A stretch of 64,000 nucleotides of DNA from Mesotaenium endlicherianum (taxonomy: Eukaryota). This document shows, one piece after another, positions 5,631 through 63,357 of this stretch. The notes beneath the pieces were generated by a model. That model ran no database searches and had not been told where the DNA came from. It saw only the letters and a list, made by a program, of their open reading frames with translations. The stretch is taken from assembly GCA_009602735.1 (NCBI GenBank), contig WELA01000805.1, positions 1 through 64,000 on the forward strand. The letters are read 5' to 3'. The position numbers were made by a program, and so were the translations under genes. Positions within the stretch are counted from its first letter, which is position 1; each line of letters begins with the position of its first letter.

Positions 5631-5649
5631 AATAGGAGATGAGAGGGAG
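5631..5649 (+). promoter_or_regulatory. polypurine tract
   Basis: AATAGGAGATGAGAGGGAG directly before the 3' LTR. Confidence 0.85.
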
Positions 5650-6127
5650 TGTTGGAATATGGTCTGTAGATCGACACTCCTAATTCTACTTTGTCGTGAC
5701 TAGGCAAGTGGATGTTGCGTCGATACGTGACGCGCGCCAGGGTGTCGATAGCCTTGCTTGGTTTGTCGTTAGTTAATCCGGTTCGTAAGTTAGTCGTTTG
5801 TTGGTATTCGTTCGAGTAGGTTAGTACTTATTAGTTGTCACTTTCACACGACAACAAAGATGTCGTGAACGTTTGTGAACACTAGTTAAGGGGGGCAGAG
5901 GAGCAGAGGGGGCAGAGGGGGTAGAGGGGGCAGAGGGGGCAGAGTGGCGGAGTGGCGTAGTGAGTTACTTAAGACCAGAAATTGTAACCCAAAAAACTAA
6001 CTCAGTAAAAGTGAAGAGTTGGGCACCTTGTGTATTTTTCGTGCAACCATATATTTTGAGTCTGAGTTCATTCAAGTGTGTGAGTGATAGAGTGTGCCAT
6101 GGACGAAGATAGTAGTGAGTTTCAACA
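5650..6127 (+). repeat. copia 3' LTR
   Basis: Direct repeat of 866-1325, followed by TSD AGGAC. Confidence 0.95.
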
Positions 6128-30900: not shown

Positions 30901-33900
30901 AGTAGCAGTCTGGGGAGGAGTTGGGTCTTTGTTCAGCGCCCCAGCAAGCCCGACCTCAGTCCAGTCAGCATCGCAGTCAGACTTGACAGCTGTGCACTTT
31001 GGGTCTGGCTCTTCTGCATGTGCTGATGGTGAGAGGCTCGCGTGGCTTGGCGGGCAGAAGAGCGTCAGAGATACGGAGCAGGCAGGCTTGTGTAGAATTC
31101 AACTCGGCGCATGTCGCGTGCTGACTGTGCTGTCCTCTGCTCTGCTGTGCTGTGTTTTCTATCGTGTGACTTTTTATCTTTTTTTGTGTCATCTGCTTGG
31201 CGAGTAGAGGCCGTGTTTGCCTTTGTGTTTGGACGCGGTGACGCCAACGCTGACCTCGACAAGCGGCGCTGGCGTGCAATTGGTCAGCCCCCCTCCCCCA
31301 TCCCGTCGCCCTTTCTCTGCCACCTGCTTTGGACGCGTCCGCTTGCATTCTGGCGAGCTGCCACCCTGCAATGAAGTATATGTACATGGTGGAAGGCTTG
31401 GCTTTGCACGTGCTGCATGAGGGGACGCTTTTGATATTTCTTGATCTTGAGCTCCTTCTCACGCCCTCCTCCCAAACGACAGTCTGGTTTGCTGGTTGTC
31501 TAACGGCTCAAAACCGTTGCTCTCGTCGGCTAAGTGCGGCAGTGTGCTGCTGGGCTGGTCACGTTGATCATTGTCTGCTGCTAATCTCAAGCAGAGTTGA
31601 AGTCTATACCGGGAGTAGCAGGGGGAAGAGGTGGATTTTGCAGTTTCTGCTCCTACTGGGTAGCCTGAGCAAGTGAAGGCGGTAGGGTCCCGTGACTGTG
31701 CTCTCAGATGCTGACCAGGTGCACCATTGCCACTTGTACGCCTTCACGTGTGCGGCGGGGGTGCCAGGGCTGCTGCTGCGACAAAACAAGGGCGCTGTGT
31801 ATGCGGAGCAAGTGGCGCCGTTTTTGGACACCTGGCTGCTGCAGGGGGAGGAGCAGCAAAGCAGCAGCAGCTCCTGGTGGGACCGTTTGTGGCCAATCAA
31901 TAGGCGCCAGCAGGACCAACCCCACGACCCCTCCCGCATGCACGAAGGGTGCGTGCTGCTTCCCCGTCTGCCACACGTCGCTTATTGCTCACCTGTTGGC
32001 CTGGTCTCTTTGAGGCCTTCTGTATTTTAGGAGGGTCAGTGGAGCATTTCAACGCGTCCTTGGACCAGACTAACCCGTGACTTTTGACGGCCAACTCTTG
32101 CTGTGCCTCGGGGGATGTGGCTACAAGCGGGAAAATATTATGTGCTACTTTTGAACAGGAAGGGGAGATGGGAGGATAGCCCTCATGTCCCCTCGTCCAC
32201 CACACACTGTCTTAATCTCTTACGCGTGGTGGTCTCTTCCTTTTGAAATCCTCCTGGTTTTGTGCCCTGCCTTCATCTGGCTCACCACTATAGTCAACCA
32301 CTTTAAGCCTTTCATGCATATGCTTACATCGTTATCTTCTTTGTCCTATTCTACCGGATGTGCCAGGCACACAAGTGCTTGGCATAATATTTGCAAGCAG
32401 TGCTACTGTGTTGTAAGCCAGAACCGATTACAACGGGCTTAGAGCTGCATGAGGATGCGATCAACCGCCTCGGCCAGCACTGGGACAGTGGTGGGCGTGG
32501 CAGCTGCCCCGTCTGTGGACAATGCGTCTTACACTGGGCGGGGGGCGCGCGTGTGGCACCTGACAGGTACATGCTGGCTGTGCTGAAGCGATTTGGGGGC
32601 CACGCGGAGTCGAACAACGAGGGGCGGCTGGTGTATGTGTTCCCCCACCTGCAGGTCACGGCCGCCGCCGCCGTGGCATCGCCCGGGGAGGCCAGCAGCT
32701 CCACCGCTGCTAGCACCTCGAGGTAAGCTGCCGCACAGCGCGCTCCTGCGCCGCTGCGCTCTTGCTACCAAGCCAATGCACTGGCTTCCCTTCCACCAGG
32801 TGCATAGCTGAGCGAGCCAGGCAGCCAGCCAGACCGGCAGTCAGCCTGCCTATCCAGGGCAGGCGTACTTTCTCGTCTACTTCTGGAGTGTACGCATGCT
32901 GATAGGTGCTTGTGCACAGCGCGTACACGTGCAGCTGAAGCAACTACTCTGACTGAGTGCGGGACGCTTTTAATCTCTGTCTCTCACGCGCAAAGTTTGG
33001 AGCACGTGGACGTCTTACGGGTTTGGGTGGAGGTTGTTAAAATTATGTACCCACGAGCGCCTGTTGTGGCATCGGGCGTGAGCGCTGTTGTGTTGTTTTG
33101 TGTATCTGTCACTGAGTATCAGCCAAAGGTGATGTACGCTTTGTGTTTGTGCGTGCCCCATGCCGCAGGGATGCGCTAGAGCCGGATGTCACGGCGCCAC
33201 CACCTGTCCCCCCGCCCATATACGAGAGGCTGCAGCCGCTCAGTGACGGCGGCAACAAGCAAGCGCACGTCATCGGGCTGGGCATGGCCAACGGTGTGGG
33301 CGCTTTCCTCCTCCCTGAACATTGCCTGCTGCTGGCCTGGGGCGTCCTCCTTCTTCTGCCTTACTTAAAACTTGAGACCTCACTCCTCAACCTCGGAACA
33401 AGCCTGTCTGCCTACCTGTGCCTCTTGCCGTCTTGAATCTTGTGCATGTTACTGCTTCTCCAGAGAGTTCGTCGTCCTTATCTTTGCCCTCGTCGCGCTC
33501 TTTGCCCTCCTTGCCACCCTCGCTTTTTCCTGCTCCTCCTCATCCCACCTCAGCCCAACTTCGCGTTCACCCGGGCCTGCAGTAGTTTCCTGCCTCTCTA
33601 GTCGTAACATGTAGTTTTGAGGCATGCAGGGTAAAGGATACACCCTACAGGCTGCGAGAATGCTTTAAGTAAGTGCAGGCGTGTTGCTCATGGATTCCAT
33701 TTCTTTTGGATCGTGTACGTGGTTGGATAAAGAGGTCTAAAAAGGGTCTCACTCACATATGCATATTACTGTCTGCGAAGGGCCCACTCCGCGTTGCGCC
33801 CTACCTCTGGCTTTGAGCGCCACCTTCACGCTCGCGCCTCAGTCCCCAGAGCTGCACCTTTCGCCTCCTCCATCAGCTCCCACCCTACCCTGGCGGCCTT

Positions 33901-34759
33901 TCGCAGCACACTCAGCCAGCTCCCGCTTGCGGCCCCTGCGTGCGCCACGCGCGGGCGTGGTGGTGCTGGTGCTGACGCCGGTGCCGGTGCTCGTGGTGGC
34001 GGTGCAGTGATCCTGCTGCTCCTATTCCGGCGCATCGGAGGCCTCAAGTATGGCCAGGGCCTCACGGCGCAGCAGATCCTGGAGAGCGACCGCGAGATTG
34101 GCGTGCTGCTGCTGCTGCTCTCCTACGTGCCCGCTCTGCTGGCGTGGCTCTTCAAGCCCCTGCTCTTCTACGCCGTCACCTTCTTCGCTGTGAGCCGGCC
34201 TCCCCCCCCCCGCTTGCCGCCCGCACGCAAGCGCGTGCACGCACGCCTTGCTCTTGCAGCTTGAGTGCTGCTCCCAATGCCCTGGTGGTCCTTTTATCTC
34301 GTCTTTTATCTTGCGAGCATGCAATGTCTGTTTCTTACACCTCATTTCTCTGAGACCCTCCATGGGGGTTCCGCCAGTGGTTGATTGTCTGCACCTTATT
34401 AGTTGATATAGTTCTAGCTGGCTTCGTGGAGGAGGCGCGGATGTGTGCCCAAGCTCAAGAGCTGCCCTTTGTCCACAACAGGCCACGTAGTGATCTTGAA
34501 GTGCAGCCTTGAGCCAGCGGTGAAGCAGGGCTCTATTGTTATGATTTTTCCTCAAGGAATATGCGTCGTTGCTATGATTGTGCAGGTGCCAGCTGCACGA
34601 TATGTGATCAACATGCAGCGTAATAGAGTGATCACGAGACGCAATAGCGTGCGAAGCGCGCGTGCCACAGAAGCCGCCATTGCTGCACAAGCTGCTGCTG
34701 AATCTAAAGCTGAACAAGCCCGTGCCCACCAGCAGTTTTCAGTCATTGTGGAGGCTTGA
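27965..34759 (+). CDS. At5g03900-like uncharacterised membrane protein (plant/cyanobacterial family)
   Basis: Exons 27965-28159, 28350-28547, ~29122-29272, 29798-29875, 30345-30533, 31208-31282, 31768-31948, 32567-32722, 33169-33293, 34008-34189, 34586-34759; motifs RMTVGDV, GGHLE..GEVVYVYP, RIAFG..L..SI, EAVFAFVFG.GD.N...RW..IG, APFLD, YML.VL.RF.G....EG.LVYVFP.LQ.TA, VIGLG.AN. Family recognised from memory, not by search. Confidence 0.8.
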
Positions 34760-35793
34760 TCAAGAGACGGAAGTACACAGAGGCATATAATGTAACTGAT
34801 TGATGTACAGAAGATGATGTGCTATGTGTTATGTTTGGGACTTCTGCATAACATGGGAGGTGTTTTCATGTTCATCTTGTGGCTGTCGATATGCTTGTAC
34901 ATTCTTTGCTCCTTTGATTGCCTTCTTGTTGAGATTGAACTTTTTTCCTGTAGGTAATCTACAAGTTACTACACAGATTTCTTGCATGCTTGCACTTGTT
35001 TTCGTAATATTTATACTATTGCCCAGTTTTAATAATGACAGCCTGGAGAATGTTTTTAACATCCGAAGGACATTCACTAGCTGATTTGATGTGATGATCA
35101 AATCGGGTTGGTGGAAGGAGACTCACAAGCTAAGTGTCAACCTTGTCTTTCATCTCATCGTTGTAAAGCCAACTTATAACAAGCCTAATATGTCCAAGTT
35201 AGCGAGGGGATTGTGCACAGTCAAAACTCCATTCACATTACATGTCAAAGTTTCTTCAAACATTTGTTTGTCTAGACTGGTAAAACTAGACTGCCACTTT
35301 TTTTTGCAGTGCACGATATAACATTAATAAGTCAATTAATCGTCTGCGGTCATGTTCCAGATTGTCAAAGATACCTTGTAGGGCGGGTGAAACAATATCT
35401 GGAGCCAAAGAATTGAGCCTAAACCTTGATATTTTAAGATGTTTTTGGCCTTTGGTTTTTTTCCAAAGGATCTTACTCCTTCTCTGATTGCTTTGTAGCT
35501 GCATATTTGCTCGCTCAGTTCAGAATCATTGTAGGTGAAATTCACACGAGTTCTTGTTACTGTAGAGCAATTTCATCTATTTACACATTGAAGACATCGC
35601 TTGGGGATACGACGTGCCTTCCTCAAGAGTCAAGCTTGTATGTGTGCCGTGCCTTCCTCAAGAGTCAAGCTTCTATGTGTATCGCATTATACTATGAAAA
35701 GAGACATTCAATTAATGTCTAACGGTGTTATATTTTGTTAGATTGTGCACCTCCACAAGCGTGTGCAAGTTCAATTTCTACTGTTCAAACCCA

Positions 35794-36930
35794 TGTCGTG
35801 CGTTACGAGGTCGAGTGCGCACCATAGGCATAAGCAACACATCATAGGCAAGCAGGCTTTGCTGCAATGGAGTCTATAATACATGTGGCGTTATAGCCAA
35901 AAAGGGAGTCAAGTCGAAAATGTTTTAATTAAGGAATGTGTACTCTCCAGAGTGAGCACCTCAAGACTGTAATCTGGTAGGAAAACAACTAATGAAGTAT
36001 GGCCCAAAAGATCACTGGAAGCACATCATGATCTTCAGAGTAGTCCTATGGCAAGGGCTTAAGCTGTGACTTTGCTCACCACTTGTGAAGTTCTTCAAGT
36101 GACTGGAAGCCTGGAGGGCTTGCTCTTCACAAGAGAGTAACTAAGTGGTCCTGAAAACACAAGAGATAAAAGTGTAAGCTTTACTGATAATCTCTGTTAC
36201 TTACACCTGGCATAATGGACTTCTAAAAGATGTCTCTTCTAGGGACATCTCTAGTACTTATACTCCTGGAAATCCGGCGGGGTGTGCGGCGGATCCAATG
36301 CATGTAGTCACTCTAGGAGGCTCTCCTATGTCCACTAATGTGTACAAGGCATGTACTAGCACTCTTATAGGCTAAGCATAACTCAAACCAATCAAAGCAA
36401 GGTGCGTAGGATATGCAACGTGGTCCTTATTGGCCGAGCTTACCTTGGGTGATTCTACCTAGATAGCGCCTCAAAAGTGGATCTGGAAATTGAGGAAGCT
36501 TCCTCTAGGAGTAGGTGATGCAGTCACCAAGTTATAGCCTCAATGATGCACATATACTATGGAAATGCAAAGCTTATGTAGGCTAAGGGGCTCGCGGATT
36601 TGTGCGCACAAAGCTTGGGGTCACGAAGAGCCAACAATGTCACCGTTGGGGACATTGAGTCACAAATTAGGCCTTGGGAAAGTTCCGCTAGGGACCGGTA
36701 GGTGACGCGGACTAGATCGCACCTATCTTGCTCGATACTTGACCAAATGACGCGAAATTGGTGTCATTCGGAAGATGCTTCGACGCGCTACACGTTGGTG
36801 ACTTGGAAATCTAGAAAAGGTCAACATACGGATGCGTAAAGTCAATGCAAAGTCGGCCTTCCTAGGTTGATGTTCTGCGCATGGGGAGCTTGGTTTTTAT
36901 ACGACAACCTCGACTCAATAAACCATGACA
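35794..36930 (-). repeat. 3' terminal repeat unit B2+A2 (1137 bp)
   Basis: 35931-36930 matches 45400-46399; 35794-35930 matches 36933-37069; the whole unit matches solo copy 62212-63357 in reverse. Confidence 0.95.
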
Positions 36931-36932
36931 GC

Positions 36933-37069
36933 TGTCGTGCGTTACGAGGTCGAGTGCGCACCATAGGCATAAGCAACACATCATAGGCAAGCAGGCTTTG
37001 CTGCAATGGAGTCTATATTACATGTGGCGTTGTAACCAAAAAGGGAGTCAAGTCGAAAATGTTTTAATT
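36933..37069 (-). repeat. repeat A1 (137 bp), preceded in sense by a G8 tract
   Basis: 3 mismatches versus 35794-35930; C8 run at 37070-37077 on the + strand. Confidence 0.95.
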
Positions 37070-37089
37070 CCCCCCCCAGCTCTCAGCCT

Positions 37090-37652
37090 CTAGCTGATGG
37101 GCTGTTGTACGCTGCCTAAGGCTAGCGCAGTGCAGTCTCCGCAGAACCAGTCTCCAGCTGGCACGCGGGCCAGCGGCAGGTCGAGGCAGCCGATGTGGAA
37201 GCCGAGGTTGCAGCTGTCGCAGAGCAGCATCTTGGCCTCCTGGCCAGTGCTGTGACAGATCTGGCACGCCCAGTCCTTGGGCGGCCGCACGTCGCGGGGA
37301 CGGACCTGCAAGTCAAGGTTAGGAAGGTGGCACGGCCCACAGTTCTTCATGTGGTCCTTGTGAAGACGGCCATCTGCGCCTTCCAGCTCCAGGACTCCTG
37401 ACGCCAAGGCACGCTTGACGCGCAGGATGACCGGCGAGCTGCTGGTGTCGAGGGTGTTCTTCGTCTGGCGTCGCAGGTACACNNNNNNNNNNNNNNNNNN
37501 NGGTGTTCTTCGTCTGGCGTCGCAGGTACACAAAGTCACCTGCGGAAAACTGCAACACCCGCGAATGATAGGCTCCTCCACGAGTCATGGCGTACCTCAG
37601 TGTGTCGCGATGCTGTGCGATGCTGAGGTTATCCATGGCCATGGGCATCAGA
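37090..37652 (-). pseudogene. integrase C-terminal region plus PHD finger
   Basis: NLSIAQHRDTLRYA...FSAGDFVYL (gypsy post-integrase tail) followed by C4HC3 CQIC...LLCDSC..GFHIGCL...P.GDWFCGDC. Confidence 0.85.
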
Positions 37653-39248
37653 GAGATAGTGCCTGAAGTGCACGATCGCCCAGACCGCTGCCAGGCACTC
37701 CCCTTCGTAGGAGCCGTAGTTGCCTTCCGCGCCGTTGTTGCTGCGGCTGGCGTAGGCCACCACATGCTCAAAGCCGTCATGCTCCTGCACCAGCACAGCG
37801 CCCAGCCCTGCCTGCGACCAGTCGGTGTGGAGGATGAAGGGCTTTGCGTAGTCAGGACGCCGAAGCACAGGAGCGCTCACCAGCAGCTCCTTGAGCTTAT
37901 CGAATGCCGCCGGCTGCTGTGGTCCCCACACGTAGGCAACGCCCTTGCGGAGCAAGTCGTTGAGCGGCTTGGCTAGCTCGCTGAACCCTGGCACGAAGCG
38001 GCGGTAGTAGTTGGCGATGCCGAGGAAGGCCCGCAGCTGCGAGAGATCTGTAGGAGGTGGGATGCCTGTGATGGCCGAGATCTTCGCCAGCTGGGGTGCC
38101 AAGCCGCTGGAGGAGAGCAGGTGGCCAAGGTACTGCACCTTGCGGGTCCCAAAAGTGCACTTGCCTGGATGGCACTTGAGCCCAGCAGCCTCCAAGCGGT
38201 CTAGGACAGCAGTGATGTGCGCCACGTGCTCCTCAAACGTCTGACTGAAGACGAGCACGTCATCGATGTAGCATCGGGCAAAGGACAGCCCGGCCAGCTC
38301 CTTATCCATCACCCTCTGAAAGGTAGCTGGCGCGTTCTTCAACCCAAACGGCATCACCACCCACTTGTAGAGCCGCTGTGCTCCCCAGAATGCCGTCTTA
38401 TGCTGGTCCTCCTTGGCGATGGGAATCTGGTTGAAGCCCTGACGCAGATCCAGCACTGAGAACCAAGTGCACGTGCCAATGTCGTCAAAGATCTCGTCAG
38501 GCGTCGGCATAGGATATCTGTCCTGCTCGGTGACCTCATTCAGCCTACGATAGTCACCGCACATCCTCTTCTCGGACCAGTTGCCCGAGGCATCCTTCTT
38601 GGCTGGCATGACCGTGGGTGCGGCATAGCGAGAGGAGGACTCCCGAATGAGCCGGCTGTCCTCCAGCTTGCCTGTCTGCGCGCTGATCAAGCCATCCTCG
38701 AAGTGGCTGTAGCGATAACGCTTCAGGAAAATGGGCTCCTGCGACGTGAGAGTAATCCGCATGGGGTCCCCCCTGTAGCGCCCGAGATCGTGCATGCCGC
38801 TGGCAAAGCTGGTGCTGCGCCTCCCGTCCAGCAGTGCCGTCAACTGTGCAGCCTGCGCCTTGGTGAGTGTCCCCCCCAGCTTCCATGTCGGTGGAGCTGG
38901 TGGCGTCGCCTGGCCTGCAGCTGGAGTCTCTTGTCTTGCCGCTGGGGTAGATTGTGGTGCTGCAGGTGTCACCTGCCCTGCAGCGGTTGGCGCTCGGCCT
39001 GCCGCGGGTACCTGCACTGTGGCAGCTGCGGCCAGCTGCCTGGCACCGTCTGCCTGCGAGCGACCGTTTGCCTGCGAGCGAGGAAAAAGAAAAGGTGACC
39101 GGGACTCCCTGGGGAAAGGTGACCGAGACTCCCTGGGTCGCTGTGAGGACTCCTCTCTCCGCCGGCCCCCCCCCAGCGAACCAGAGTCCTCACTGCGCGG
39201 TGGGGGGCGCGCGCCTGCGGTGCAGGCCCTGCGCGCTGAGGATGCCAC
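37653..39248 (-). CDS. Ty3/gypsy reverse transcriptase and truncated RNase H
   Basis: RMCGDYRRLN, LDLRQGFNQI, MPFGLKNAPATFQR, YIDD (38259-38270), LHTDWS, YASR; RNase H breaks off after HFRHYL. Confidence 0.95.
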
Positions 39249-41752
39249 GTCGTGCCGGGCGGGGCCTGATGGTCATCGTCGGTGGAGTCATCGTCCATAT
39301 CATCGGCAGGCGGAGGCAGCTCGGGATGCCGGGCTGCGGCGTAGAGAGGCGCCAAGGCCTGCGTCTGCAGCAGGATCCACGTGAGGACGTTGGCGTCGAT
39401 TGCCTGCCCCAAGAGGCAAATGCGGTTCACCTCAGTGAGACCGTCCACCTGTGTGAGATGCGGCGGGAAGCCCATGGCACGCTCCATCTCTGCAGGGCGC
39501 GGCCTGTCAAACATGCCAGTCTCCAGGTCGATGACCATCCCGCGCTGATCTCCGACGAAGGCGTCGCTGTCGTAGCGGCTGACAAAAGTCGGCAGCGCGC
39601 GAGTGACGTCATGCAGGACCTCACACTGCGCCACGGAGGGATGTGGTAGTGCAGTCACGCGCTGGGCCAGACGAGGGGCATCGAGGATGGAGTCGACGGT
39701 GCGTGGGTGACGTGGATGAGAGGCGGCCAACGCCTCGAGAGTACCTGGCATTGCCAGGTTGGTGAAGTAGGCGCGGACGCGGTGCGCGAAGGAAACAATC
39801 TGGGCAGCGTTGATGAGGGCCTCGCGGCCGACATAGCTGCTGCAAAGAGCGAAGTCGGCGCTAACATCGGGTCGGTGATCGTGGTGCGCGGCCACGTTCT
39901 CCAGGACCCACGCGAGTGTGTGCGGCGGCTGGCGATCCTCAACAATGTTGAGGACGCGGAGCAAGTGCCAGAAGAGGGCCGTGCGGGGATCGCTGAGCGC
40001 CCTGCCACGTCTGGCTCTGGAGAGCCCTTGGCACTCCCAATCGACGATGACGAGGTCAATGGGCCCAAGTTGGGTGACATGCTCGACGGTGATGTCGCGG
40101 ATGTCCATGGGCCAGTCTGTCTGAGCGCGGCGAAATGCGTGCGCGGGAAGGAGGTCAGGGAATCGCTCGTGGCCCAACGCCATCTGCCGACGGGCCACCT
40201 GCTGAGCCTCAGGATCGGGATCGACGTAGACGTAGCGGCGCACTGGGATGCCGGCTTGTAAGGTCGCGAGCAACCCGGTGGCGATGCCGGCGAAGAGCTT
40301 GACGAGGACGATGCCGCCGGGCCGCTTGTCTAGAGCGTCTGCGCAGATAGGAGTCGGAAGTGGGCGACACCCCATTGCGAGGGTGCCGGGCTGAGCGGGC
40401 GGCGGGAAGGTGCGCGCGGCGCTGTGCTGATGGGGCGCCATGCGGAGGGCGGCCACAGCATGGTCTGCGTAGTCACGCGTAAGGCTGGGGATGCAGTCAG
40501 TGAGCGGCTGCGGACGCTCCTCCCGTGCGTGGTCCTGGTAGGTGCGCCACCGCAGGCGCGCATCCTGCAGGGCTGTTGGAGAGACAGCGCGGGCCTGACG
40601 TCGGGCCGAGGCCACGCACAGCTGCTGCCACCTGTCGCGCTGGGCAAGGTCAGTCTGGTGCAAGGCCGCGTGTGCCAGTTGGTCGAGAACGGGACGCTGA
40701 GTCAAGTAGGGGTGCGGGCCGAAGTAGGCCCGCTGGCGTGCGCGCATGTCGGCAGAGGGGACTGTGCAAACGGAGCGCTCGGAGCTGTCGACCTCCTGCG
40801 GGGACCAAACTAACCGGCGAGGGGCTAGCTGGACTGGCGGCTGGGGCTGCCTTCGTGGGACGGGCGCGTCTCGGGGCTGCCGGAGACTAGACATGAGCCG
40901 TGTGCGTGCGGCGGCCGTAAATGGGTGGCGACTGGGCGGCCTGCTGTCGGTGCGGGCTACCTTGGGAGGAGGTGACCCGGAGGGACCGTCGTCAGCGATG
41001 TGGCTACGAGGGATGCTGGCGCGCGGAGCGATAGGGGCCAGCATCACAAAATGCGCCTCGGAAGAAGACTGAGCGTCGTCGCCAGCGGAGAGGGGCCGAA
41101 AGGGCGGAGTGCGGCGTCGGTCTCGAGTGTCGTTGTATGGCGGTGTGTCCCCGCGGGCCCGCGTGTCGTCGTAAGGAGGCGTGCGCTCCCTGTCGTCGTA
41201 GGGCGGCGTGATGGAGCGGGCTCGCATCTTGCGGAGGGGAGTCACCTCTCGCGTCTCGCAAAGGGGTGTGAGCGATCGGGAGCGGCTCGTCTCGCGGAGA
41301 GGAGTGGTCTCTTGAGCGGACCCAATGGTCGGCCTAGTGCGGCGTGCGTAGGTCAGATGGGCGCAGATAGACGGGGTCGTGCGGGGTGGCTTGCGGACGC
41401 TGAGCCTGGGCGCTGGCTGCTGTATGGAGTGTGTGCCAGCGCTAGAGGAGGCCGCGGCAGCCCGGCTCGTCGCAAATAAATGTGCGATGCGGCGACACTC
41501 GTGGCTCGTCGAGCAGTCGTGTGACACTGGACAGCTGGGTCCAGCGGCGTTGGTGCGAGCCCTGCTGGGCCAGTCGTGTGTCATGGGCTGGCTGGGTGCG
41601 CTGAAGCCGGGCGGACCAAAAGGTGCGCGCTGCCTGCGTGCCGTAGGCGCAGCTGGCGGGGGCTCCTCTGGTGGCGCCGCGCTGAGTACCTCGTCGGATG
41701 CCTCTGGCAGTCGCTCCCACTGTGTCTCCTCCTCACTCCGGAGAGTACACAT
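38969..41752 (-). CDS. ORF with a low-complexity N-terminus and a C5 cytosine methyltransferase domain (~39360-40315)
   Basis: Motif I LFAGIA, II YVYVD, III DIRDI, IV DLVIVDWECQGLS (Cys codon 40031-40033), VI VLENV, VIII AHRVRAYFTNL, IX EMERAMGFP, X LLGQAIDAN, in canonical order. Confidence 0.9.
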   Translation of the reverse strand: MCTLRSEEETQWERLPEASDEVLSAAPPEEPPPAAPTARRQRAPFGPPGFSAPSQPMTHDWPSRARTNAAGPSCPVSHDCSTSHECRRIAHLFATSRAAAASSSAGTHSIQQPAPRLSVRKPPRTTPSICAHLTYARRTRPTIGSAQETTPLRETSRSRSLTPLCETREVTPLRKMRARSITPPYDDRERTPPYDDTRARGDTPPYNDTRDRRRTPPFRPLSAGDDAQSSSEAHFVMLAPIAPRASIPRSHIADDGPSGSPPPKVARTDSRPPSRHPFTAAARTRLMSSLRQPRDAPVPRRQPQPPVQLAPRRLVWSPQEVDSSERSVCTVPSADMRARQRAYFGPHPYLTQRPVLDQLAHAALHQTDLAQRDRWQQLCVASARRQARAVSPTALQDARLRWRTYQDHAREERPQPLTDCIPSLTRDYADHAVAALRMAPHQHSAARTFPPPAQPGTLAMGCRPLPTPICADALDKRPGGIVLVKLFAGIATGLLATLQAGIPVRRYVYVDPDPEAQQVARRQMALGHERFPDLLPAHAFRRAQTDWPMDIRDITVEHVTQLGPIDLVIVDWECQGLSRARRGRALSDPRTALFWHLLRVLNIVEDRQPPHTLAWVLENVAAHHDHRPDVSADFALCSSYVGREALINAAQIVSFAHRVRAYFTNLAMPGTLEALAASHPRHPRTVDSILDAPRLAQRVTALPHPSVAQCEVLHDVTRALPTFVSRYDSDAFVGDQRGMVIDLETGMFDRPRPAEMERAMGFPPHLTQVDGLTEVNRICLLGQAIDANVLTWILLQTQALAPLYAAARHPELPPPADDMDDDSTDDDHQAPPGTTWHPQRAGPAPQARAPHRAVRTLVRWGGAGGERSPHSDPGSLGHLSPGSPGHLFFFLARRQTVARRQTVPGSWPQLPQCRYPRQAERQPLQGR

Positions 41753-41760
41753 TCCTTACT
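41732..41760 (-). promoter_or_regulatory. 29-nt internal region complementary to the B1/internal junction (45397-45425)
   Basis: 28/29 inverted match; the single difference is a G-U pair in the sense RNA. Confidence 0.85.
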
Positions 41761-41898: not shown

Positions 41899-43101
41899 CT
41901 AAATGGCCACGCCAACAGGCACGTCGTGGCGAACGCGGACGTCGATCCTCGCGGACGGCCTGCCGCGAGAGGCCGAGACCCCCTGATGTGCCGTAGGCGC
42001 TGCGGCCGCACCGCGAGCAAGGGCGGCGGCAGCGATGGCTGTGCTGGCCGTGGCGAGGGCCTCAATGGCATCGTCCGCCATCTGCCGCATCATCGCGCTG
42101 TGGGCAGTGCAGATGCGGATCTGCTCCCTGGCCTGGGCTGCCAGGACATCCGCCTGCTGCTGTGGCGTGAGGTGGAGCTCGGCACTAGGTAGGTCCGGCT
42201 CCTCGTCCTGTGGCTCGAGCAGGTACACCCCCACCGAGATCTCCTCGTCCTCGGGCCCGTCCTTATTGGTCTTGACCACTGGCCGGCCATCGCCCAGCCC
42301 CACGAAGCCATAAAGAGTGGACACTGCTGGGCGGCGATCGACAATGTCAAGGGGCAAGGATGCGGTGCGCGTCCCCCCTGTCCTCCAGTCGGGACGATAG
42401 AAGACGCGCTCCGCCCAGTTGTCGACCGCGGCGCTAATGGGAAAGAGCACGTCCTGCCCTAGGAGCACATCAAAGGACTCGGAAGGAGTGACGAGTGCGT
42501 GCCGATGGATGGTTGTCTCATCTGCCGTGCCTGGGCGCAGAGTGAATAGTAGCGCCAACCTCGTGCGGCCGGCGACGGTCTCGGACGTGCCGGCGGCGGT
42601 GTTCATGCGCGTCGGAGAGTCCTCCAAGTCGGCGGAAGAGAGTCCCAACTGACGGAAGTAGCGGAGGCTGATGAGAACCGGCTGCGCGCCTGTGTCGAAC
42701 ATGATGCGCTGCAGCGCCTGGGTGTTGACGAGCACGATCCCCTGCAAATTATCCAAAAATGCGGCGTTTGGAGTGCTGATCATCCTGCGCTCATGCGCAG
42801 GACGCGCGGGCGTGGATCGCACCGCAGTGGCGGCATCAGCCGTCGGCCTCAGCGCCCTCCCCCCAATGCGTGGGTTAACCGGCCCCCCGGCAGCCTGCGT
42901 TGGGCTGCTGCCGGGGTTTTGTGCGCAGCCAGGATTTAGGCCCTGGCTGTGCGCAGCCGTGCGCGGGCCGTCGGCACCGCGATCGGACAACCGGCCGCGT
43001 GGCGCAATTGGGATAGCCCCCTCCTGATTGAGGGTGGCTGCTCCGACCGCAAAATCTGTGCTGGCTGAGCCGGGCCATGCGCGCATGCCAAGTGGCGGCA
43101 C
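41899..43101 (-). CDS. retroviral-type aspartic protease region
   Basis: RIMFDTGAQPVLIS active site and DVLLGQDVL C-terminal motif. Confidence 0.85.
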   Translation of the reverse strand: MPPLGMRAWPGSASTDFAVGAATLNQEGAIPIAPRGRLSDRGADGPRTAAHSQGLNPGCAQNPGSSPTQAAGGPVNPRIGGRALRPTADAATAVRSTPARPAHERRMISTPNAAFLDNLQGIVLVNTQALQRIMFDTGAQPVLISLRYFRQLGLSSADLEDSPTRMNTAAGTSETVAGRTRLALLFTLRPGTADETTIHRHALVTPSESFDVLLGQDVLFPISAAVDNWAERVFYRPDWRTGGTRTASLPLDIVDRRPAVSTLYGFVGLGDGRPVVKTNKDGPEDEEISVGVYLLEPQDEEPDLPSAELHLTPQQQADVLAAQAREQIRICTAHSAMMRQMADDAIEALATASTAIAAAALARGAAAAPTAHQGVSASRGRPSARIDVRVRHDVPVGVAI

Positions 43102-43345
43102 GTGCGCGGCAGGGGCTGAGCCCTGGATGTGCGCAGCTGCGGGTGCGCTGTCGGCGCTTTTGCCGACGATCCGGCCGCACAGCGCAGTCAGGACCCCCCC
43201 CAGCTAACCGAGGGTGGCGGCCGCTGCGGCCGTCGCTGCGCTGGCCGTGCGGGATTGCGCGCACGCGCCACTTGGCANNNNNNNNNNNNNNNNNNNNNNN
43301 NNNNNNNNNNNNNNNNNNNNNNNNNNNNNNNNNNNNNNNNNNNNN

Positions 43346-45350
43346 CTGGCAGCGCAGTGCGCTGGGCGCGCGTGTGAGCCAGCGTGCGTGCGTGCATGCT
43401 GCTGTCGGCAGAGGCGGCCCCGCCTGCCGTGCACGTGCCACGTGGCGGATTCTGCTGGAGCCTGCTGTCTGCAGCAGCCAGCGGGGACCGGCTGTCCCTG
43501 CCTGTGCGCAGAGCTGCGCATGAGCGTGCCGCACGGACGGAGAGGGAGGCTGCGGCCGGACCAGCTTTAGCCGTGCACGCCGCCAGGTGCCCCCGTCCCA
43601 ACCTGCCAGCTGTCGCTACGCGGGCTGACAGGAGGCCTGCTGGTGCGAGCACGAAAGCGCAAGCCAGGGGCTTTGTCGGGGCCTCGGCTGGCGTGCGGGC
43701 TAGCCCGCGTGCGCGCGAGCTTGCGCCGAGAGATGGCGCAACCGCGCAGTCGTGCAACCTGCCATCCGGCAATCTGTCGGGCCTCCGGTTGTTGCTGCTG
43801 ACAGTGGTTAAAGCGGTGCGCACAGGGCTAGCAGAGCTGCCGGTGCGGGCGCCGGCAGCTCTGGCAGCGGGCACTACGTCGTAACGCGGACGTGCGCGGG
43901 GCTGCGGCGCTGCCGCTGAGCCTGATGTGTGCGCTGAAGCTGTGCGTGCGCCAGCTGTCAGTGTCGTGGCATAGGACGGTGGAGCGGACGCGAGGAGTGC
44001 TCCGCTCGCGTCATAGTTATCGACGTCGACGAGGCCACGGAGTCTAGCGATCTCCGCGTTGGCCTCCACGAGGGCGTCGCTGACGTCGTCGAAGCTGCAG
44101 TACTTGGCTCCATGCATCCATGCGGCGTCCGTCGTGGCCGTAGCTGCTGTCATTGCGGGGCGGCCACCCGTACAAGGGTTGCGTGCGCCTCGCTGTCTTG
44201 CTGAAGGCGTAGGGCCGTCGCGAGCGCGTCCGTTCTTGACGTCGCGCTTCTTCTGCAGACAGACAATCTGCAGGTGGCCGGCCTTGCCACAATAGGTGCA
44301 GTCGCCGGGCTTGCCATTCTGCGCGAGAGTGCAGTTCTGGCGTGAGTGGCCCGTCTTCCCGCAGGACCAGCAGGGATCGCTCGTAGTGGCAGCCATGAAA
44401 ATGCGGCCACGCGTAGCTTCGCGCTGCTGCGTCTGCTGGGGCAGCTGAGAGCGCTGAGGCTGCTGCTGCTGCGACTGGGGCTGGCGGGCAGGCGTCGTGC
44501 GCGTCGTAGAAGACGGCAGCACTGAGGCCTCCTGGCGCACGCCCGTGGATGCTAAGCCCACACGATCGCTAATATTGCTCCGTGCGGCGGCCAAGCTCTG
44601 CTTCTCAACGGAGAGGTAGGCCTGCTCCAGAGAATACTCTGAATCGTGGCGGTCGATGAGGGGGACTACGGCCCTCTCCCTCAGACGCGGCTCTACGGCG
44701 CGCAAGAAGATCTCCGCGGCCTCCCGGTCAGTGACAGCGCCGACATCGCGGCGGAGGTGCACCAAGCGGCGGTACATCATGCGGATAGTCTCGTTCTTGC
44801 GTCGGAAGAAATGGTGCAGCTCGTACACCTTCTCTTCAGTTGCAACCTGGAACTTTGTCTTCAGGATATTCCAGAAGGCTTGCACTGGATCAGCTAGCAG
44901 GGTCGCCACTGGTGGGTCACCCACAAGCTCAGTGCGGGTCCGGAGCTCGGCCTCCTTCTCACGGAAGGTGTCGCGGGNACGGGCCTCGTGCGAGAGGTCG
45001 CGCATAAGCGTGTCGAAGGCGTCGCGCTTAGTCAGCGTGGGTGTCTTGAGCTTTGCAGCCGCGAAGTCAACCTGAAACTCCGAGATGGTATCTTCCAGAT
45101 CACAGGTGCCTGGCCTACCGCTAAAGCGGTAGGAAGACGTGTCAGTCTTGACCTCGTGGTCACCTGCCATGGGATACCAGAAATCGTAGTGAGCCCACTG
45201 GGGAGATGGCTCAGAAGCAACTGCTGTGTGCTGGAGAGCAGGTTGCTCTTCTTCGGCGGGTTCAGTGATAGTGCTGAGATCTGAGTCTGAGTTTTTTCCA
45301 CTAACCCCTTCGTAGTATGGCTGATAGGAAAGCCCACTACGGGTAGGCAT
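43346..45350 (-). CDS. Gag with two CCHC zinc knuckles
   Basis: Starts MPTRSG; helical capsid-like region; CWSCGKTGHSRQNC and CTYCGKAGHLQIVC; the frame beyond gap 43278-43345 is unknown. Confidence 0.85.
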
Positions 45351-45399
45351 ACGCTGAAGGTTCTAATTGCTTGCAGGCAAAGAGAGATCTTTTAGAAGT

Positions 45400-46399
45400 A
45401 AGGAATGTGTACTCTCCAGAGTGAGCACCTCAAGATTGTAATCTGGTAGGAAAACAACTAATGAAGTTTGGCTCAAAAGATCACTGGAAGCACATCATGA
45501 TCTTCAGAGTAGTCCTATGGCAAGGGCTTAAGCTGTGACTTTGCTCACCACTTGTGAAGTTCTTCAAGTGACTGGAAGCCTGGAGGGCTTGCTCTTCACA
45601 AGAGAGTAACTAAGTGGTCTTGAAAACACAAGAGATAAAAGTGTAAGCTTTACTGATAATCTCTCTTACTTACACCTGGCATAATGGACTTCTAAAAGAT
45701 GTCTCTTCTAGGGACATCTCTAGTACTTATACTCCTGGAATTCCGGCGGGGTGTGCGGCGGATCCAATGCATGTAGTCACTCTAGGAGGCTCTCCTATGT
45801 CCACTAATGTGTACAAGGCATGTACTAGCACTCCTATAGGCTAAGCATAACTCAAACCAATCAAAGCAAGGTGCGTAGGATATGCTACGTGGTCCTCATT
45901 GGCCGAGCTTACCTTGGGTGATTCTACCTAGATAGCGCCTCAAAAGTGGATCTGGAAATTGAGGAAGCTTCCTCTAGGAGTAGGTGATGCAGTCACCAAG
46001 TTATAGCCTCAATGATGCACATATACTATGGAAATGCAAAGCTTATGTAGGCTAAGGGGCTCGCGGATTTGTGCGCACAAAGCTTGGGGTCACGAAGAGC
46101 CAACAATGTCACCGTTGGGGACATTGAGTCACAAATTAGGCCTTGGGAAAGTTCCGCTAGGGACCGGTAGGTGACGCGGACTAGATCGCACCTATCTTGC
46201 TCGATACTTGACCAAATGACGCGAAATTGGTGTCATTCGGAAGATGCTTCGACGCGCTACACGTTGGTGACTTGGACATCTAGAAAAGGTCAACATACGG
46301 ATGCGTAAAGTCAATGCAAAGTTGGCCTTCCTAGGTTGATGTTCTGCACATGGGGAGCTTGATTTTGATACGACAACCTCGACTCAATAAATCATGACA
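45400..46399 (-). repeat. 5' terminal repeat B1 (1000 bp)
   Basis: About 15 substitutions (by-eye count) versus 35931-36930; lacks the A segment and is not followed by a TGG-type PBS. Confidence 0.95.
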
Positions 46400-49300
46400 C
46401 CCATTATTGGCGCAATCGACGCAACCACCGCCCACCCTCTCTCCACCATGCCTTCTCCCTCTTCACCCTCTCTTTCTCTCTAACACCTTAACAAGCAGAC
46501 GGCCATGGCCGCCTGCAACGACAAGCGGCCATGGGTGCCCACCATCGTGCCCCTCCAAGCTTTCGACCCCACAAAGCCATCTAATGAGAGATAGCGCTCT
46601 GTCCCACGACCCCATGACAAGCTTACTAGCGGCCCAGGCTAGGCTTTGCCTTGCTTTTCCTTGCCATGGCCATTCCAAAAAAGGTCCTTAAGGGTGCAGT
46701 GTCTAAGCGAAGAAGAGGAGTAAGTTATGGCAAAGCCCTAATGTATGGCGGGCACGAAAGAGCGGCCCGCGAAGAAAAGGCGTTACCACAACGAACGCTT
46801 GCAACGTGCACGGGCCAGCGCTCACATGAGCGAGGACCCTTACTGATTTCCCCCTCACAAAACTTACGTGAGCGGTGCCTTATTGACGACAAACAAACAA
46901 CCGCACATTATACATGATGTCGGCATGATGTGTACATTTCTGAACATCAGGTCACAAAGTAAGGTGTAAAGTCAACGGCAGTTGACTTGAGTGGAGCCTT
47001 TGTTGCACATTGTTGCACATCAACCACGCTACGACCAAGCTACGACCATCTACGTCGCATATTGAACGGCAGCGCCGTGACCATAAGCTTTCGGTGAACA
47101 TATCGATCGTCACGATTGAAAGTTAACTAGTCTACTCGAGTTGCTGACGGAAAAGATAAGCTTTGCGTGTAGTTCTCCGCCGCCCCACACTTCACTCCGA
47201 GTTTTTCGCGCTCAAGGGATGTTTGCTTCCAGACGACTCGAGCAATGAGAACGCCCTCAACCATGGTCGACTGCAGCTCTCGAACAACTCTCAAACTGCT
47301 TGTTGCTTCAGCAATCCCCAGCGCTTATCCTGGGCTGGTCCTTGGTGCCGCCCCTGCGATGGGCAGAAGTTTCCACGGGCCAACGAGAGTCGTCAAAAAC
47401 CATGAGTCACATAACATCAACGTCACAAATACTCTTTTTATCAGCTGGTACCATGCTGGCGCCTGTTGGTGCCCATGTGAGGAAGGTTCTTACTACCATA
47501 TCATGTCAACATGTGGCCAGATATCCATTGGCAAGTAAGCCAGAAGTAAGCATATAGTCTGGGGTCCTGGATGGTCCTCGGAGTCTATGGGAGTCTGCTG
47601 GGAGTGGCAACTTTCATTGCTATGCGGGGAAAAGTGAAGGATACGGGAGAAAAGATGGCCGCGTCAGGAACACGGCAGAAAATTGTAAATTCTGTATGAA
47701 ATTTAACGCCAAAAAAATGGATAGCACCTATTTAGCCAGATTTAACGAAAATTATACGAAAACCTTGAAAATACGACGAGTTATTCTCCCACGCATATCC
47801 TTATTCGGGTGCCCTGCCCAGGCCTGCCTTCGAGTTTCACACCCCTGATCACCGTGCATGCTCTGAAGCTGCTCCAAAAAATTCTGAGGGGACGAGGACG
47901 AGGACGTCTGCTCCGGCCTCGATATATGTATGTATTCCTGGTCCCTGCATTTCTTCGTTGCTTTTAGGATACGGAAGCTTGCTCCTTACTTTGTGGCAAT
48001 ACCAAAGTTCTGCATGTAAAAGAAGCGTACGATTATTTTTACTATTTAATGGCTCCGTGCAGCTTTTGAAAAGGCTATATATCGGAAGCGACTAATATGG
48101 ATGAAGGGAAGGGGGAAGTTCCTGAGCTGGCGCCAAACGCTCACCATGAGCGCATCATTGAGGTGGGCCAAGTGTGCTTGATTACTTCTCTTGTGCGTTT
48201 CAAGTGTTTGTTTATCGAACATCACGCACTTTGGTGTTCATATCTATATACCCGATCGAGGTACAAAGCAAGTACGTCTTATACACAGATGTGTTGAAAT
48301 GATAAATGCTGTCTATGAAGAGCGTGTCTCCTGCGAGTGCGTTCGAAGCTCTTCTTTGCCAGAAACTTAAAAGTGAAAAAATGTGAAGAGTTGCAGAAGG
48401 TGAGTGTGAATATTGGAAAAATAGATGTGTGATAATGAGGCTCTTTAAGTGCGTTGCATTGCACTATTTTTGCAATGATCTGTATGACCCAGCCATTGGT
48501 AAGCTTGCTAGATTTGCAAGCTTAGGCTGTGTGCCAAGTAAGGTACGTGCCATCAGTGAGTAGTACTGTTATGATGTCAGAAGCAATCTTCAAAAAGACA
48601 AAGTTTCTGAGTGCCTTCTTATTGCTGTGACACAGCACCAGTGTACTTCAGTTCAAGTCTTGAAATCTCTGGCTGGCGAGTGAAGCTTATTATGTGAAAC
48701 TTAATGCTATTCTTCAGAAGTCCTCGGAATTGCTTCATGGCTTTCTTATACTAACCGTGACGGGCAATATAACGTGCATGTCTTTTGAGTTTCCCATACT
48801 TGCTTCACACCGTATACTACACCTCAACTTATATGTTGCACATATTCTTATGGTGAAAACACTTCATGAGCTGTAGATTTTCACCTAGTTTGTGATTGCT
48901 TGCTTGAAGGCTGATAGAAGAGGAAACTTTGGGGGACTTGTGAGTCGGGAAGGTGGTTGAAGGTTTGTAATTGATGTGTTCTGATAAATGATTTTGGTGA
49001 CTCCTCTCCATTGTGGTATGAGCACTTTGCAGGACTTTTCAAGCTAGCTCCTTCGTCAGCAGATGTCGGAGTTGCTGGCTGCCAGCGTGCAGGTGAACAT
49101 GCAGCAGCAGCAGCTCACGGAAACCCTGCATAGAACTTTTGGCAGCATAGGATCTGCCTTTTCTTGGGGGATTGACCTCCAGGACATGGAGGTAAAAACT
49201 GCAATAAACTTCTCCTTCTTGCACATGGACAGGAGTTGCGTTTGAGATAGTTTTTTTACTGAACATTCTAATAAGTATGATTATGGCTGCAATGTCTGCT

Positions 49301-50583: not shown

Positions 50584-51313
50584 TGAAAGGTGCAGAGTGC
50601 CCTAGTGGAAGCGTAGTGACTCACGAGGAAAAGAACTAGTTGCAATCATACTAAAGAGTGCAGCGGTATATCACTAAGAAAGCTTAGGAAAATTACTCAA
50701 CATTTTGAGTAGCAAGAAACTGCCCCCAAATGGTGTAAGATGAAAGGCCTTGTCATTACAAACCCGTAGAAATTTACAAAAGTGAAAACTGATGAGAAAC
50801 AAAGAAGTTATGCCTATTTATAATTTTTTGCCTAAGCGCTCCTCTCTAGCAGGAAGCTACGGATTTTCCTAAGTGTTCGTCAAATCGTCCCTTCCAGAAT
50901 ATTCGTGAGTAAGCCAGATCAGTCTAATCTGACGTGTCGGGTCAAATTGACGTCCACATACATGCATTGACATTACTAGAATATTCTATCTTAGACGCGC
51001 TAGGCTAAACCGAAACTTCTAGGTAAATCGACCTAGTGGGCACTCCGCGTCAGCCGAACTTACGTGAAGGTTCGAGTTCATTCTAACGAGCCAGATCGCT
51101 CGACGCTGTCGGTCGATCTGACGGTCGCGCTCACAGTCATCAACCGACCTCAAAACTAATTAAACTTCAGAATTCCGTAACTCTCTCAATACTTGACCAA
51201 ATTTGATGAACTTTATATCAAAATGACCACAAACATGCACTCTATACTACTATACAATCAAAACATACCTTCATGAAACTCAAAAATGCACTTTATAAAT
51301 CTATGACCTTACA
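50584..51313 (-). repeat. chromovirus 3' LTR
   Basis: Inverted copy of 56890-57625; TGTAAGG...CCTTTCA in sense. Confidence 0.93.
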
Positions 51314-56299: not shown

Positions 56300-56884
56300 T
56301 TAGAGCTTGTGCACCACCTTCAGCTCACAGCTAGGCCGGTACCGAAAGTGGTACAGATCCATTGCCATGTGTCTGCGCTGCTGTAGCCGCCAAGAACCAG
56401 CAGGGACTTCCTCCTCCTCCTCTACCTCCTCCTCCTCCTCCACCATCTCCTGGTCCTCCTGGTCCTCCTGGTCGACATCCTCCTTCTCCACGTAGTTGTC
56501 CTCCTCCTCCACCTCCTCCTCCTCCTCCTCCTCCTCCTCGTTCTCCTCGTCGTTGTCCTCCTCCTCCTCGTTGTCCTCCAGCACCACCACCTCCACTTCC
56601 ATTACATCCACCAACCCCCCTAAGCGCCTGTGAACAATCACACCCTCGTCTGCGTTAGCAATAATCTCAACCTCCGCAAAAGACGGTGCCGCTGGCGCTG
56701 CGCACGGCCTCCTTGCCTGTGCACCCTCTTGGGCTTCGTCATCAGAGGAGTCGGAGAGAAGGTAAACTATAGGAGGCACCTCCTCCTCCTCCTCCTCCTC
56801 CTCCCCCTCCCCCTCCTCCTCCTCCTCCTCCTGCTCCTCCTCCTCCTCTTCCACCTCCTCCTCCTCCTCCGCCTGGGCAGCTCC
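56300..56884 (-). pseudogene. Glu-rich (GAG)n continuation of the 49492-50583 pseudogene
   Basis: Joining 50583 to 56884(-) across one TSD copy reads in frame as MATGDGS-GAAQAEEEEEVEEE. Confidence 0.55.
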
Positions 56885-56889
56885 AGAAC

Positions 56890-62211: not shown

Positions 62212-63357
62212 TGCCATGATTTATTGAGTCGAGGTTGACGTACAAAACCGAGCTCCACTTGTGTGAACCGTCGACCTAGGAAGACTGACTTTGCATTGAC
62301 CTTACGCATCTATATGTTGACCTTTTCTAGATTTCCAACTCACCAAAGTGTATCGCGTCAAAGCATCTTCCGAATGGCACCGGTTTCGCGTCATTTGGTC
62401 AAGTATCGAGCGAGATATTTGCGATCTAGTCCGCGTCACCTACCGGCCTCTAGCGGAACTTTCCCAAGGGCCAACTTGTGACTCAATGTCCCCGAAGGTG
62501 ACATTGTTGGCTCTTCGTGATCCCAAGGACCCCTAGCTTTGTACTCACAAATCCGCGAGCCCCTTAGACTACATAAGTCTTGCATTTCCATAGTATAAGT
62601 GCATCATTGAGGCTATAACTTGGTGCCTGCATCACCTACTCCTAGAGGAAGCTTCCTCAAGTTCCAGATTCACTTTTGAGGCACTATCTATGTAGAATCA
62701 CCCAAGGTTAGCTCCACCAATGAGAGACACATAGCATATTCTACGTGCTTTGCTTTGATTGGTTTGAGTTTTGCTTAGCCTATAGGAGCGCTAGTACATG
62801 CCTTGTACACATTAGTGGACGCTGGAGAGCCTTCTAGAGTGACTAGATGCATTGGATCCGCCGCATACCACGCCGGATTTCCATGAGTATAAGTACAAGA
62901 GATGTCTTTAGAGAAACATCTTTTTAGAAGTCCCATTATGCCAGGTGTAAGTAGCAGAGATTATCAGTAAAGCTTACACTTTTATCTCTTGAGTTTTCAA
63001 GACCACTTAGTTACTCTCTTATGAAGAGCAAGCCCTCCTAGCTTCCAGTCACTTGATGAACTTCACAAGTGGTGAGCAAAGTCACAGCTTATACCCTTGC
63101 AGAGGACTACTCTTGAAGATCATGATGTGCTTCCAGTGATCTTTTGGGCCATACTTCATTAGTTGTATTCCTACCAGTTTAAAATTTTGAGGTGCTCACT
63201 CTGGAGAGTACACACTCCTTAATTAAAACATCTGAGACTTGACTCCCTTTTTGGCTATAAAGCCACATGTATTATAGACTTCATTGCAGCAAAGCCTGCT
63301 TGCTTATGATGTGTTGCTTATGCCTATGTTGCGCACTCGACCTCGTAACGCACGACA
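62212..63357 (+). mobile_element. solo B+A terminal unit of the DNMT-gypsy family
   Basis: Collinear with the reverse complement of 35794-36930 but more diverged; TG...CA ends; 4-bp TSD GGTG (62208-62211, 63358-63361). Confidence 0.93.

Follow-up and report, generated by a model that had tools for sequence, protein, structure and literature searches.

A decayed Gypsy retrotransposon of Mesotaenium endlicherianum with a DNMT3-like methyltransferase, split terminal repeats and a predicted internal integrase cut site

Introduction

KnitGypsy-Dnmt3 was described in Klebsormidium nitens by de Mendoza et al., 2018 (PMC5890265). According to the text of that paper, it combines Gypsy domains with an intronless DNMT3-like DNA methyltransferase (DNMT) domain in the pol region, DIRS-like repeats in the order A...B-A-B, and purifying selection on the DNMT. 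The same text (figures and main supplement aside) mentions no palindrome, target duplication, priming mode, PHD finger, read-through stop, EC motif or second DNMT position; the main supplement may show motif IV and the domain order. Here we analyse an element of this kind in a 64,000-nucleotide stretch of Mesotaenium endlicherianum DNA (contig WELA01000805.1, positions 1 to 64,000; hereafter ‘the window’). Methylase capture by Gypsy is already published, and the present element is an additional member.

Other described systems share parts of this design. SymbioDIRS-Dnmt3 of Symbiodinium carries a DNMT3-like domain in Pol and repeats arranged as A-coding-B-A-B; it comes in two domain orders, and its CpG is not significantly depleted. 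It differs in having a tyrosine recombinase, a DIRS reverse transcriptase (RT) and demonstrated CG activity, whereas the window element has an integrase of the DDE family, a protease and 4-bp target duplications (PMC5890265, text). Tf1/Sushi elements and Tcn1 resemble the window element in having a primer-binding site (PBS) with complementarity to the presumed transcript 5′ end. They have ordinary full long terminal repeats (LTRs) at both ends and, in Tcn1, chromodomains, in contrast to the PHD finger, DNMT and split repeats of the window element (PMC4600332 and PMC6317226, in part). Foamy virus integrase cuts the LTR-LTR palindrome after CA on both strands in vitro (Delelis et al., 2005, PMC1180852, in part). 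Prototype foamy virus thereby offers a likeness, a palindrome cut after CA that leaves 2-nt 5′ overhangs, and a difference: its junction occurs only in unintegrated circles, where its role is disputed, whereas here the junction is genome-encoded and permanent in every full element. Gypsy-7a_cRei of Chlamydomonas reinhardtii is an active green-algal Gypsy element with a PHD finger and LTRs drawn in ‘subparts’, but DNMT is absent from the domains listed for it in the portion of PMC9940879 consulted. A 2025 paper (PMC12344493, in part) labels streptophyte DNMT3 elements ‘LTR Copia’, at odds with the Gypsy assignment made in the 2018 paper and supported by the domain order reported here.

In the literature searched, which left theses, Repbase and most subscription papers outside its scope, we found no account of a palindrome, priming or integration route for this clade. 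On balance, we lean towards reading the window locus as a decayed element of the KnitGypsy-Dnmt3 kind whose DNMT likely methylates its own cDNA and whose integrase likely cuts an internal palindrome on an end-joined intermediate.

Results

A Gypsy element with split terminal repeats

Pfam matches to the open reading frames (ORFs) of the window give a minus-strand domain order of gag, protease, DNMT, RT, RNase H, (integrase) and PHD finger. This is a Gypsy domain set, with the integrase core deleted in the window copy and present in relatives. The locus almost certainly represents a Ty3/Gypsy retrotransposon of the KnitGypsy-Dnmt3 kind in a decayed state, and the match to that element upholds the link to DNMT-carrying retrotransposons drawn in the original prediction.

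The ends of the element have the architecture A1...PPT-B1-GC-A2-B2 (PPT, polypurine tract), with TG...CA termini and 4-bp target duplications. All features lie on the minus strand unless stated otherwise. Repeat A1 (45400..46399) forms the 5′ end, starts with TGTC, and differs at 15 of 1000 nt from A2 (35931..36930). Repeat B1 (36933..37069), which ends in CGACA, has 3 mismatches over 137 nt to B2 (35794..35930), the 3′ end of the element, which ends in GACA. The insertion is flanked by the target-site duplication TGGG (left copy 46400..46403, right copy 35790-35793). This is not the canonical LTR layout: the G8 PPT (37070..37077) lies directly before B1, the PBS (45380..45399) directly follows A1, and TG and CA meet at an internal palindrome. 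That palindrome, the B1|A2 junction GACA-GC-TGTC (36927..36936, both strands), is the predicted integrase cut site.

The same layout was identified elsewhere. A solo A+B of the same family (62212..63357, plus strand, ~90% identity) carries the 4-bp duplication GGTG, and a metagenome locus from a distant low-GC family, L139, has the same A...B-A-B layout with the target duplication AAGG. All three insertions with both ends thus have 4-bp duplications. It is extremely improbable that the A...B-A-B order is spurious, produced by tandem or nested LTRs or by the window assembly. The assembly does contain N gaps, and collapsed metagenome contigs can create false repeat paths, but the A1/A2 and B1/B2 mismatches are scattered, L139 repeats the layout with a duplication of its own, and the layout has been published for Klebsormidium (PMC5890265, text). 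Locus L089, whose tandem B-GC-A units show 100% identity and could reflect an assembly path, was left out of the insertion counts.

We identified 80 metagenome loci, 53 of them at least 6 kb long; 38 of these 53 have a PHD match. The palindrome pattern G[AT]CAGCTG[AT]C occurs within 3.2 kb downstream of the PHD finger in 16 of the 38 (0.63 expected from shuffles) and in 12 of the 16 loci with a full 3.2-kb tail; coding cores contain 2 matches in 236 kb. Palindrome-positive sequences, the window included, represent 14 families at 80% nucleotide identity and cover both of the DNMT positions described below. In 17 of 18 junctions, a G-run lies 72-219 nt ahead of the palindrome. A CpG stands beside the predicted cut on the B side in 17 of 18 loci and on the A side in 4 of 18, these loci not being independent. 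Precise A|B joins are present in the window, L139 and L090, with one shared A at the join in the window and in L139.

A predicted self-priming site

The PBS is complementary to a site inside repeat A. This site (45688..45707), the predicted transcript 5′ end and self-primer, lies ~24 nt after the TATA-like TATAAGTA, and 19 of 20 nt pair with the PBS in the window. The predicted duplex energy is -22.2 kcal/mol in the window, -25.6 in L139 and -21.3 in L073, against -14.4 (window) to -16.0 for the best of 40 shuffles. A self-complementary PBS is therefore found in two families of unrelated sequence, that of the window and that formed by L073 and L139 together; no such site was located in L095 or L090. 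Judged from sequence, a PBS complementary to an A-internal site after a TATA-like motif is the signature of Tf1-type self-priming.

A proposed route of integration

In LTR reverse transcription, the PPT determines where the cDNA repeat begins on the left and the PBS where it ends on the right. Because the PBS follows A and the PPT precedes B, the predicted cDNA repeat is B-GC-A. Inserted copies run from A to B; relative to the predicted cDNA, the inserted form would therefore be circularly permuted, with its break at the palindrome and GC lost.

We propose self-priming, as in Tf1, by a transcript that begins inside A1. Ordinary reverse transcription would then yield a linear B-GC-A...B-GC-A, the ends of which lack TG/CA. 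The A end would next be joined to the B start, through either ligation that closes a two-repeat circle or an RT jump from end to end. Integrase would then make a staggered cut in the PBS-side palindrome, after CA on both strands, dropping GC and inserting A...B-GC-A-B. Such a cut would produce the ends required by a DDE integrase, an enzyme type with which the 4-bp duplications agree. It is quite likely, from the sequence of these junctions, that the element termini are made by cutting the palindrome, and such cutting is probably obligate for integration in the green-lineage Gypsy clade.

A DIRS/PAT-type mode of copying, in which a circle is integrated by a tyrosine recombinase acting in trans and the DDE integrase is a passenger, would account for the A...B-A-B order, which is shared with SymbioDIRS and other split-repeat elements (PMC5890265, text). 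This is very unlikely. The TG...CA termini and the 4-bp duplications in all three insertions argue against it, as does the presence of a PBS and a PPT. In addition, no tyrosine recombinase domain was found among Pfam matches to the window ORFs or to 25 full or partial relatives, in which integrase zinc and core domains are the rule. The DIRS/PAT-type route is thus already disfavoured, and we return to cutting of the palindrome by the element's own integrase.

Several observations weigh against this route or constrain it. Four of the 16 full-tail loci have no palindrome within 3.2 kb (one of the four has it further out), and the pattern was defined after the window and the first matches had been seen. 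A symmetric circle has two identical palindromes, and mirror insertions (A-B-GC-A...B) would therefore be expected about half the time; we found none in 10 distinct 5′ ends (8 from one family, the window and L095). Either only one of the two palindromes is chosen, or the intermediate is something other than a plain circle. Finally, the 3′ end of L082 (6935-7055) stops at B1 and continues into unrelated DNA, an A...B form that fits several routes. Candidate origins of this form are B1xB2 recombination, a one-repeat circle and a mirror insertion.

The case for a closed circle as the integration intermediate is, on these sequences, evenly balanced. Ends may also form without one, if RT jumps from the A end to the B start and integrase cuts the palindrome beside the resulting nick or flap; we regard this as plausible though unlikely. 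Cutting beside a nick or flap would make the choice of site one-sided, consistent with the absence of mirror insertions among the 10 5′ ends. RT can clamp a single base at end-to-end jumps, and the A shared at the A|B join in the window and L139 is what such a clamp would leave. A single shared base is equally compatible with blunt ligation, however, and the L090 join gives no verdict, as its PBS was not found.

In either form of the end-joined intermediate, the DNMT would be carried in the particle within the polyprotein and would methylate cDNA cytosines, probably at CG. A more speculative link, which we consider highly improbable, is that the DNMT marks which of the identical palindromes integrase cuts by methylating the near-invariant CpG beside the cut in the first duplex; strand displacement would then leave the two palindrome copies hemimethylated on opposite strands.

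The DNMT3-like domain

A C5 cytosine methyltransferase between protease and RT had been predicted, and Pfam matches on either side (protease upstream, E 1.8e-8; RT/RNase H downstream, E 6.8e-32) bear this out. The domain (39362..40330, placed by Pfam, PDB search, AlphaFold and Foldseek) lies in a 928-aa open frame (38969-41755, from the ORF list). Its ten motifs are in the predicted, unpermuted order: I at 40303-40274, II at 40228, III at 40105, IV at 40048-40025, VI at 39910-39893, VIII at 39784-39758, IX at 39490 and X at 39415. The catalytic Cys (40031-40033), the Glu of the motif VI ENV and both Arg of the motif VIII RxR are present. The residue before the catalytic Cys is Glu instead of Pro, so that motif IV reads WEC in place of PC, as the original prediction noted. 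The domain also contains several decay substitutions.

The domain matches Pfam PF00145 just above the cut-off (E 4.4e-5, 23.5 bits vs 22 bits). In a PDB search, the top 29 of 39 matched sequences are DNMT3A/B/C (best E 1.1e-14), and plant DRM-type and DNMT2 chains score far below DNMT3. An AlphaFold model built from a 45-row alignment (pLDDT 95.1, pTM 0.93) has DNMT3A as its best Foldseek match (E 1.2e-21, TMq 0.73). The first Atlas cluster is a PF00145 cluster that is commonest in Streptophyta. Viral contigs yielded only distant phage-type methylases (68 loci at 23-38% identity). By nearest sequence and by modelled fold, the domain is DNMT3-like, not DRM, DNMT2 or bacterial; of the earlier description ‘DNMT3/bacterial-like’, the first half stands and the second does not.

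Conservation and spread of the family

We identified 1325 homolog representatives at E<=0.001, of which the best 150 were listed. The original prediction called the capture rare rather than new; that it is not new agrees with de Mendoza et al., 2018, and this number shows that it is not rare. In an alignment of 156 homologs, the catalytic Cys is kept in 152 of the 153 rows that have a residue there, the motif VI Glu in 153 of 154, and the two motif VIII Arg in 149 of 151 and 147 of 149. Of 153 rows, 85 have Glu and 57 have Pro immediately before the catalytic Cys, and no sequencing run differs from the window at the W, E or C codons. WEC is therefore the majority state among homologs, and copy-specific decay as its cause is ruled out.

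Other copies of the window family were observed only through sequencing reads and contigs; the family is abundant, with 8972 contigs aligned in one run. Variants segregating among these copies (contig variants at a 20% threshold in four runs, two of them from one sample, with two sites added from a comparison of runs) comprise 19 synonymous and 5 non-synonymous changes against 141:435 sites (p 6e-8), a ratio that is a rough measure of selection and not a pairwise Ka/Ks. The DNMT is under purifying selection among family copies; it does not evolve neutrally.

Among 172 DNMT-bearing proteins, the DNMT lies before RT in 24 and after RT/RNase H in 95; 53 were unplaced. Pfam scans of 25 such proteins found Gypsy integrase, with zinc and core domains the rule, and often a PHD finger. 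By source name, the pre-RT form occurs in Closterium, Mesostigma, Marchantia and Tetraselmis, and the post-RNase H form in Scenedesmus and Pleodorina. Source-named relatives include P0265, P0293, P0288, P0283, P0054 and P0072, from Marchantia, Tetraselmis, Pleodorina, Scenedesmus and Mesostigma. The range of DNMT-Gypsy elements is thus wider than the single species of the 2018 paper, taking in liverworts, chlorophytes, Mesostigma and Closterium.

In an RT tree of 166 rows, the DNMT-bearing forms fall in one clade of 104 (support 0.93). This clade also holds two Calypogeia RTs and one K. nitens RT (P0238), which is known as RT only; a DNMT from K. nitens was not identified. Within the clade, the post-RNase H forms make up a single group that nests among the pre-RT forms (support 0.97). 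A quick DNMT tree, with only viral and prokaryote-like outgroups and no host DNMT3 sequences, recovers the post-RNase H group (SH-aLRT 99), but its nesting among pre-RT forms at only 83. The simplest reading of these trees would be one capture followed by one relocation of the DNMT. Two Gypsy-like Pol proteins outside the clade (P0289, P0311) are listed with PF05869, a Dam adenine methylase family, and are possibly a separate methylase capture.

DNMT and RT share one ORF in P0025, P0219 and P0220, in contrast to the separate frames of the window copy. Of 23 pre-RT loci, 22, from about four families, have an in-frame TAG/TAA followed by CAR-YYN between DNMT and RT; in L069, L070, L071, L076 and the L073/L139 family, this read-through-type stop lies 300-321 nt before the RT match. 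CAR-YYA is the read-through signal of tobacco mosaic virus (PMC2194720, in part). Such a stop would place the DNMT at Gag-level abundance, in excess of RT. It was not seen in the window's own DNMT-RT linker.

A possible role for the methyltransferase

Whether the DNMT actively methylates the element's own cDNA, which the original prediction suggested as a substrate alongside target chromatin, is, from sequence evidence, an open call with equal weight on either side. Its most likely substrate is cDNA, because it is made within the polyprotein and keeps its catalytic residues. SymbioDIRS-Dnmt3 methylates CG in yeast (PMC5890265, text).

Other evidence points away from self-methylation. The Klebsormidium DNMT domain gave no methylation in yeast, a result that its authors considered inconclusive, and human DNMT3B likewise failed in that test (PMC5890265, text). 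Steady self-methylation might erode CpG, yet the element is not depleted: CpG observed/expected is 0.94 for the element and 1.07 for the DNMT, vs 0.57 and 0.39 for the coding regions of the neighbouring Gypsy and Copia elements, a comparison confounded by high GC. The canonical Pro before the catalytic Cys is replaced by Glu in the majority of homologs. One polyA RNA run, of which ~6% was read, placed no reads on the DNMT, a weak test; 83 reads fell on the element, none at >=99% identity.

Most of these points would also suit a DNMT kept as a DNA-binding or chromatin-reading module, or one acting in trans on host chromatin rather than on its own cDNA. The negative yeast result, the Pro-to-Glu change (85 of 153 rows) and the absence of CpG depletion all favour such a role, as does the CAR-YYN stop, which in about four related families splits gag-protease-DNMT from RT and implies an excess of DNMT over RT. 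On the other side, the failure of human DNMT3B blunts the yeast result, and the S-adenosylmethionine-binding and catalytic residues hardly vary even between very distant families, a constancy not needed for binding alone. We hold this alternative to be possible but doubtful.

Decay of the window copy

The window copy is dead, with its integrase core deleted and decay at CG and CHG, and it cannot move by itself. Protease, DNMT and RT each sit in an open frame of their own, a frame change between DNMT and RT that may be programmed or may be decay. The gag-like ORF (43188..45362), with a CCHC zinc knuckle (zf-CCHC E 8.7e-4, under the curated cut-off), holds an N and an N gap. It is followed by the protease ORF (41899..43203; PF13975 at ~42445-42729) and, beyond the DNMT frame, by RT and RNase H (37653..38890, in ORF 37629-39272, which is in another frame than the DNMT). 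The remaining coding sequence (37090..37648) comprises the C-terminal part of integrase, placed by tblastn of relatives, and a PHD finger (~37132-37266, E 2.6e-12). Relative to P0225, ~430 codons, covering the end of RNase H and the integrase zinc and catalytic domains, are lost at a breakpoint at 37648..37653, where the tblastn alignment skips from residue 426 to 859; at 37651, another sequencing run continues into unrelated sequence. An N gap in the integrase/PHD region conceals a 49-bp assembly duplication that is skipped in all four runs. Within the coding region, the protease-DNMT spacer contains a 29-nt stretch (41732..41760, plus strand) that repeats the 3′ end of A in inverted orientation (97% complementary); it was not seen in L139.

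Over 39740-40320, 18 sites are private to the window copy (11 non-synonymous, 7 synonymous). Of these changes, 14 are C-to-T on either strand, and 13 of the 14 fall in a CG or CHG context, for which the background is 55% (p 0.003). This pattern fits host CG and CHG methylation, as in streptophytes. In the coding direction, the 14 comprise 11 G>A and 3 C>T, which together with their CG/CHG context rules out pure G-to-A editing as the cause of decay. The residues VKLF, IVDW, SRAR and INAA had been attributed to G>A decay; all four do differ from other copies, through changes counted among the 18 private sites, and represent decay, but of a C-to-T kind that affects both strands.

Neighbouring sequence

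The region 50584-57625 contains a chromodomain-bearing Gypsy pol (51304-54068, minus strand). A 730-nt repeat at 50584-51313 has an inverted counterpart at 56890-57625, which stands before a gag-like ORF. A strongly CpG-depleted Copia-like element lies at 862-6130, with LTRs (862-1328, 5646-6130) that are 92% identical. The plus strand at ~30000-34800 encodes an intron-rich host gene, which may resemble a plant chloroplast protein.

Discussion

The split terminal repeats, which the original prediction missed, are a more unusual feature of this element than its capture of a methylase. Because the repeats are split, tools that require paired LTRs would probably miss the clade; REXdb was built on paired-LTR predictions.

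Despite the published capture, why a retrotransposon retains a host silencing enzyme is an open question. The clade offers many natural, intact DNMT domains, in two motif IV states and two positions, with which it could be tested.

Whether joined LTR ends are true integration precursors has been debated for retroviruses for decades (PMC1180852, in part). If the route proposed here is true, an inserted form that arises only via a joined, internally cut intermediate would make that debate directly testable in algae.

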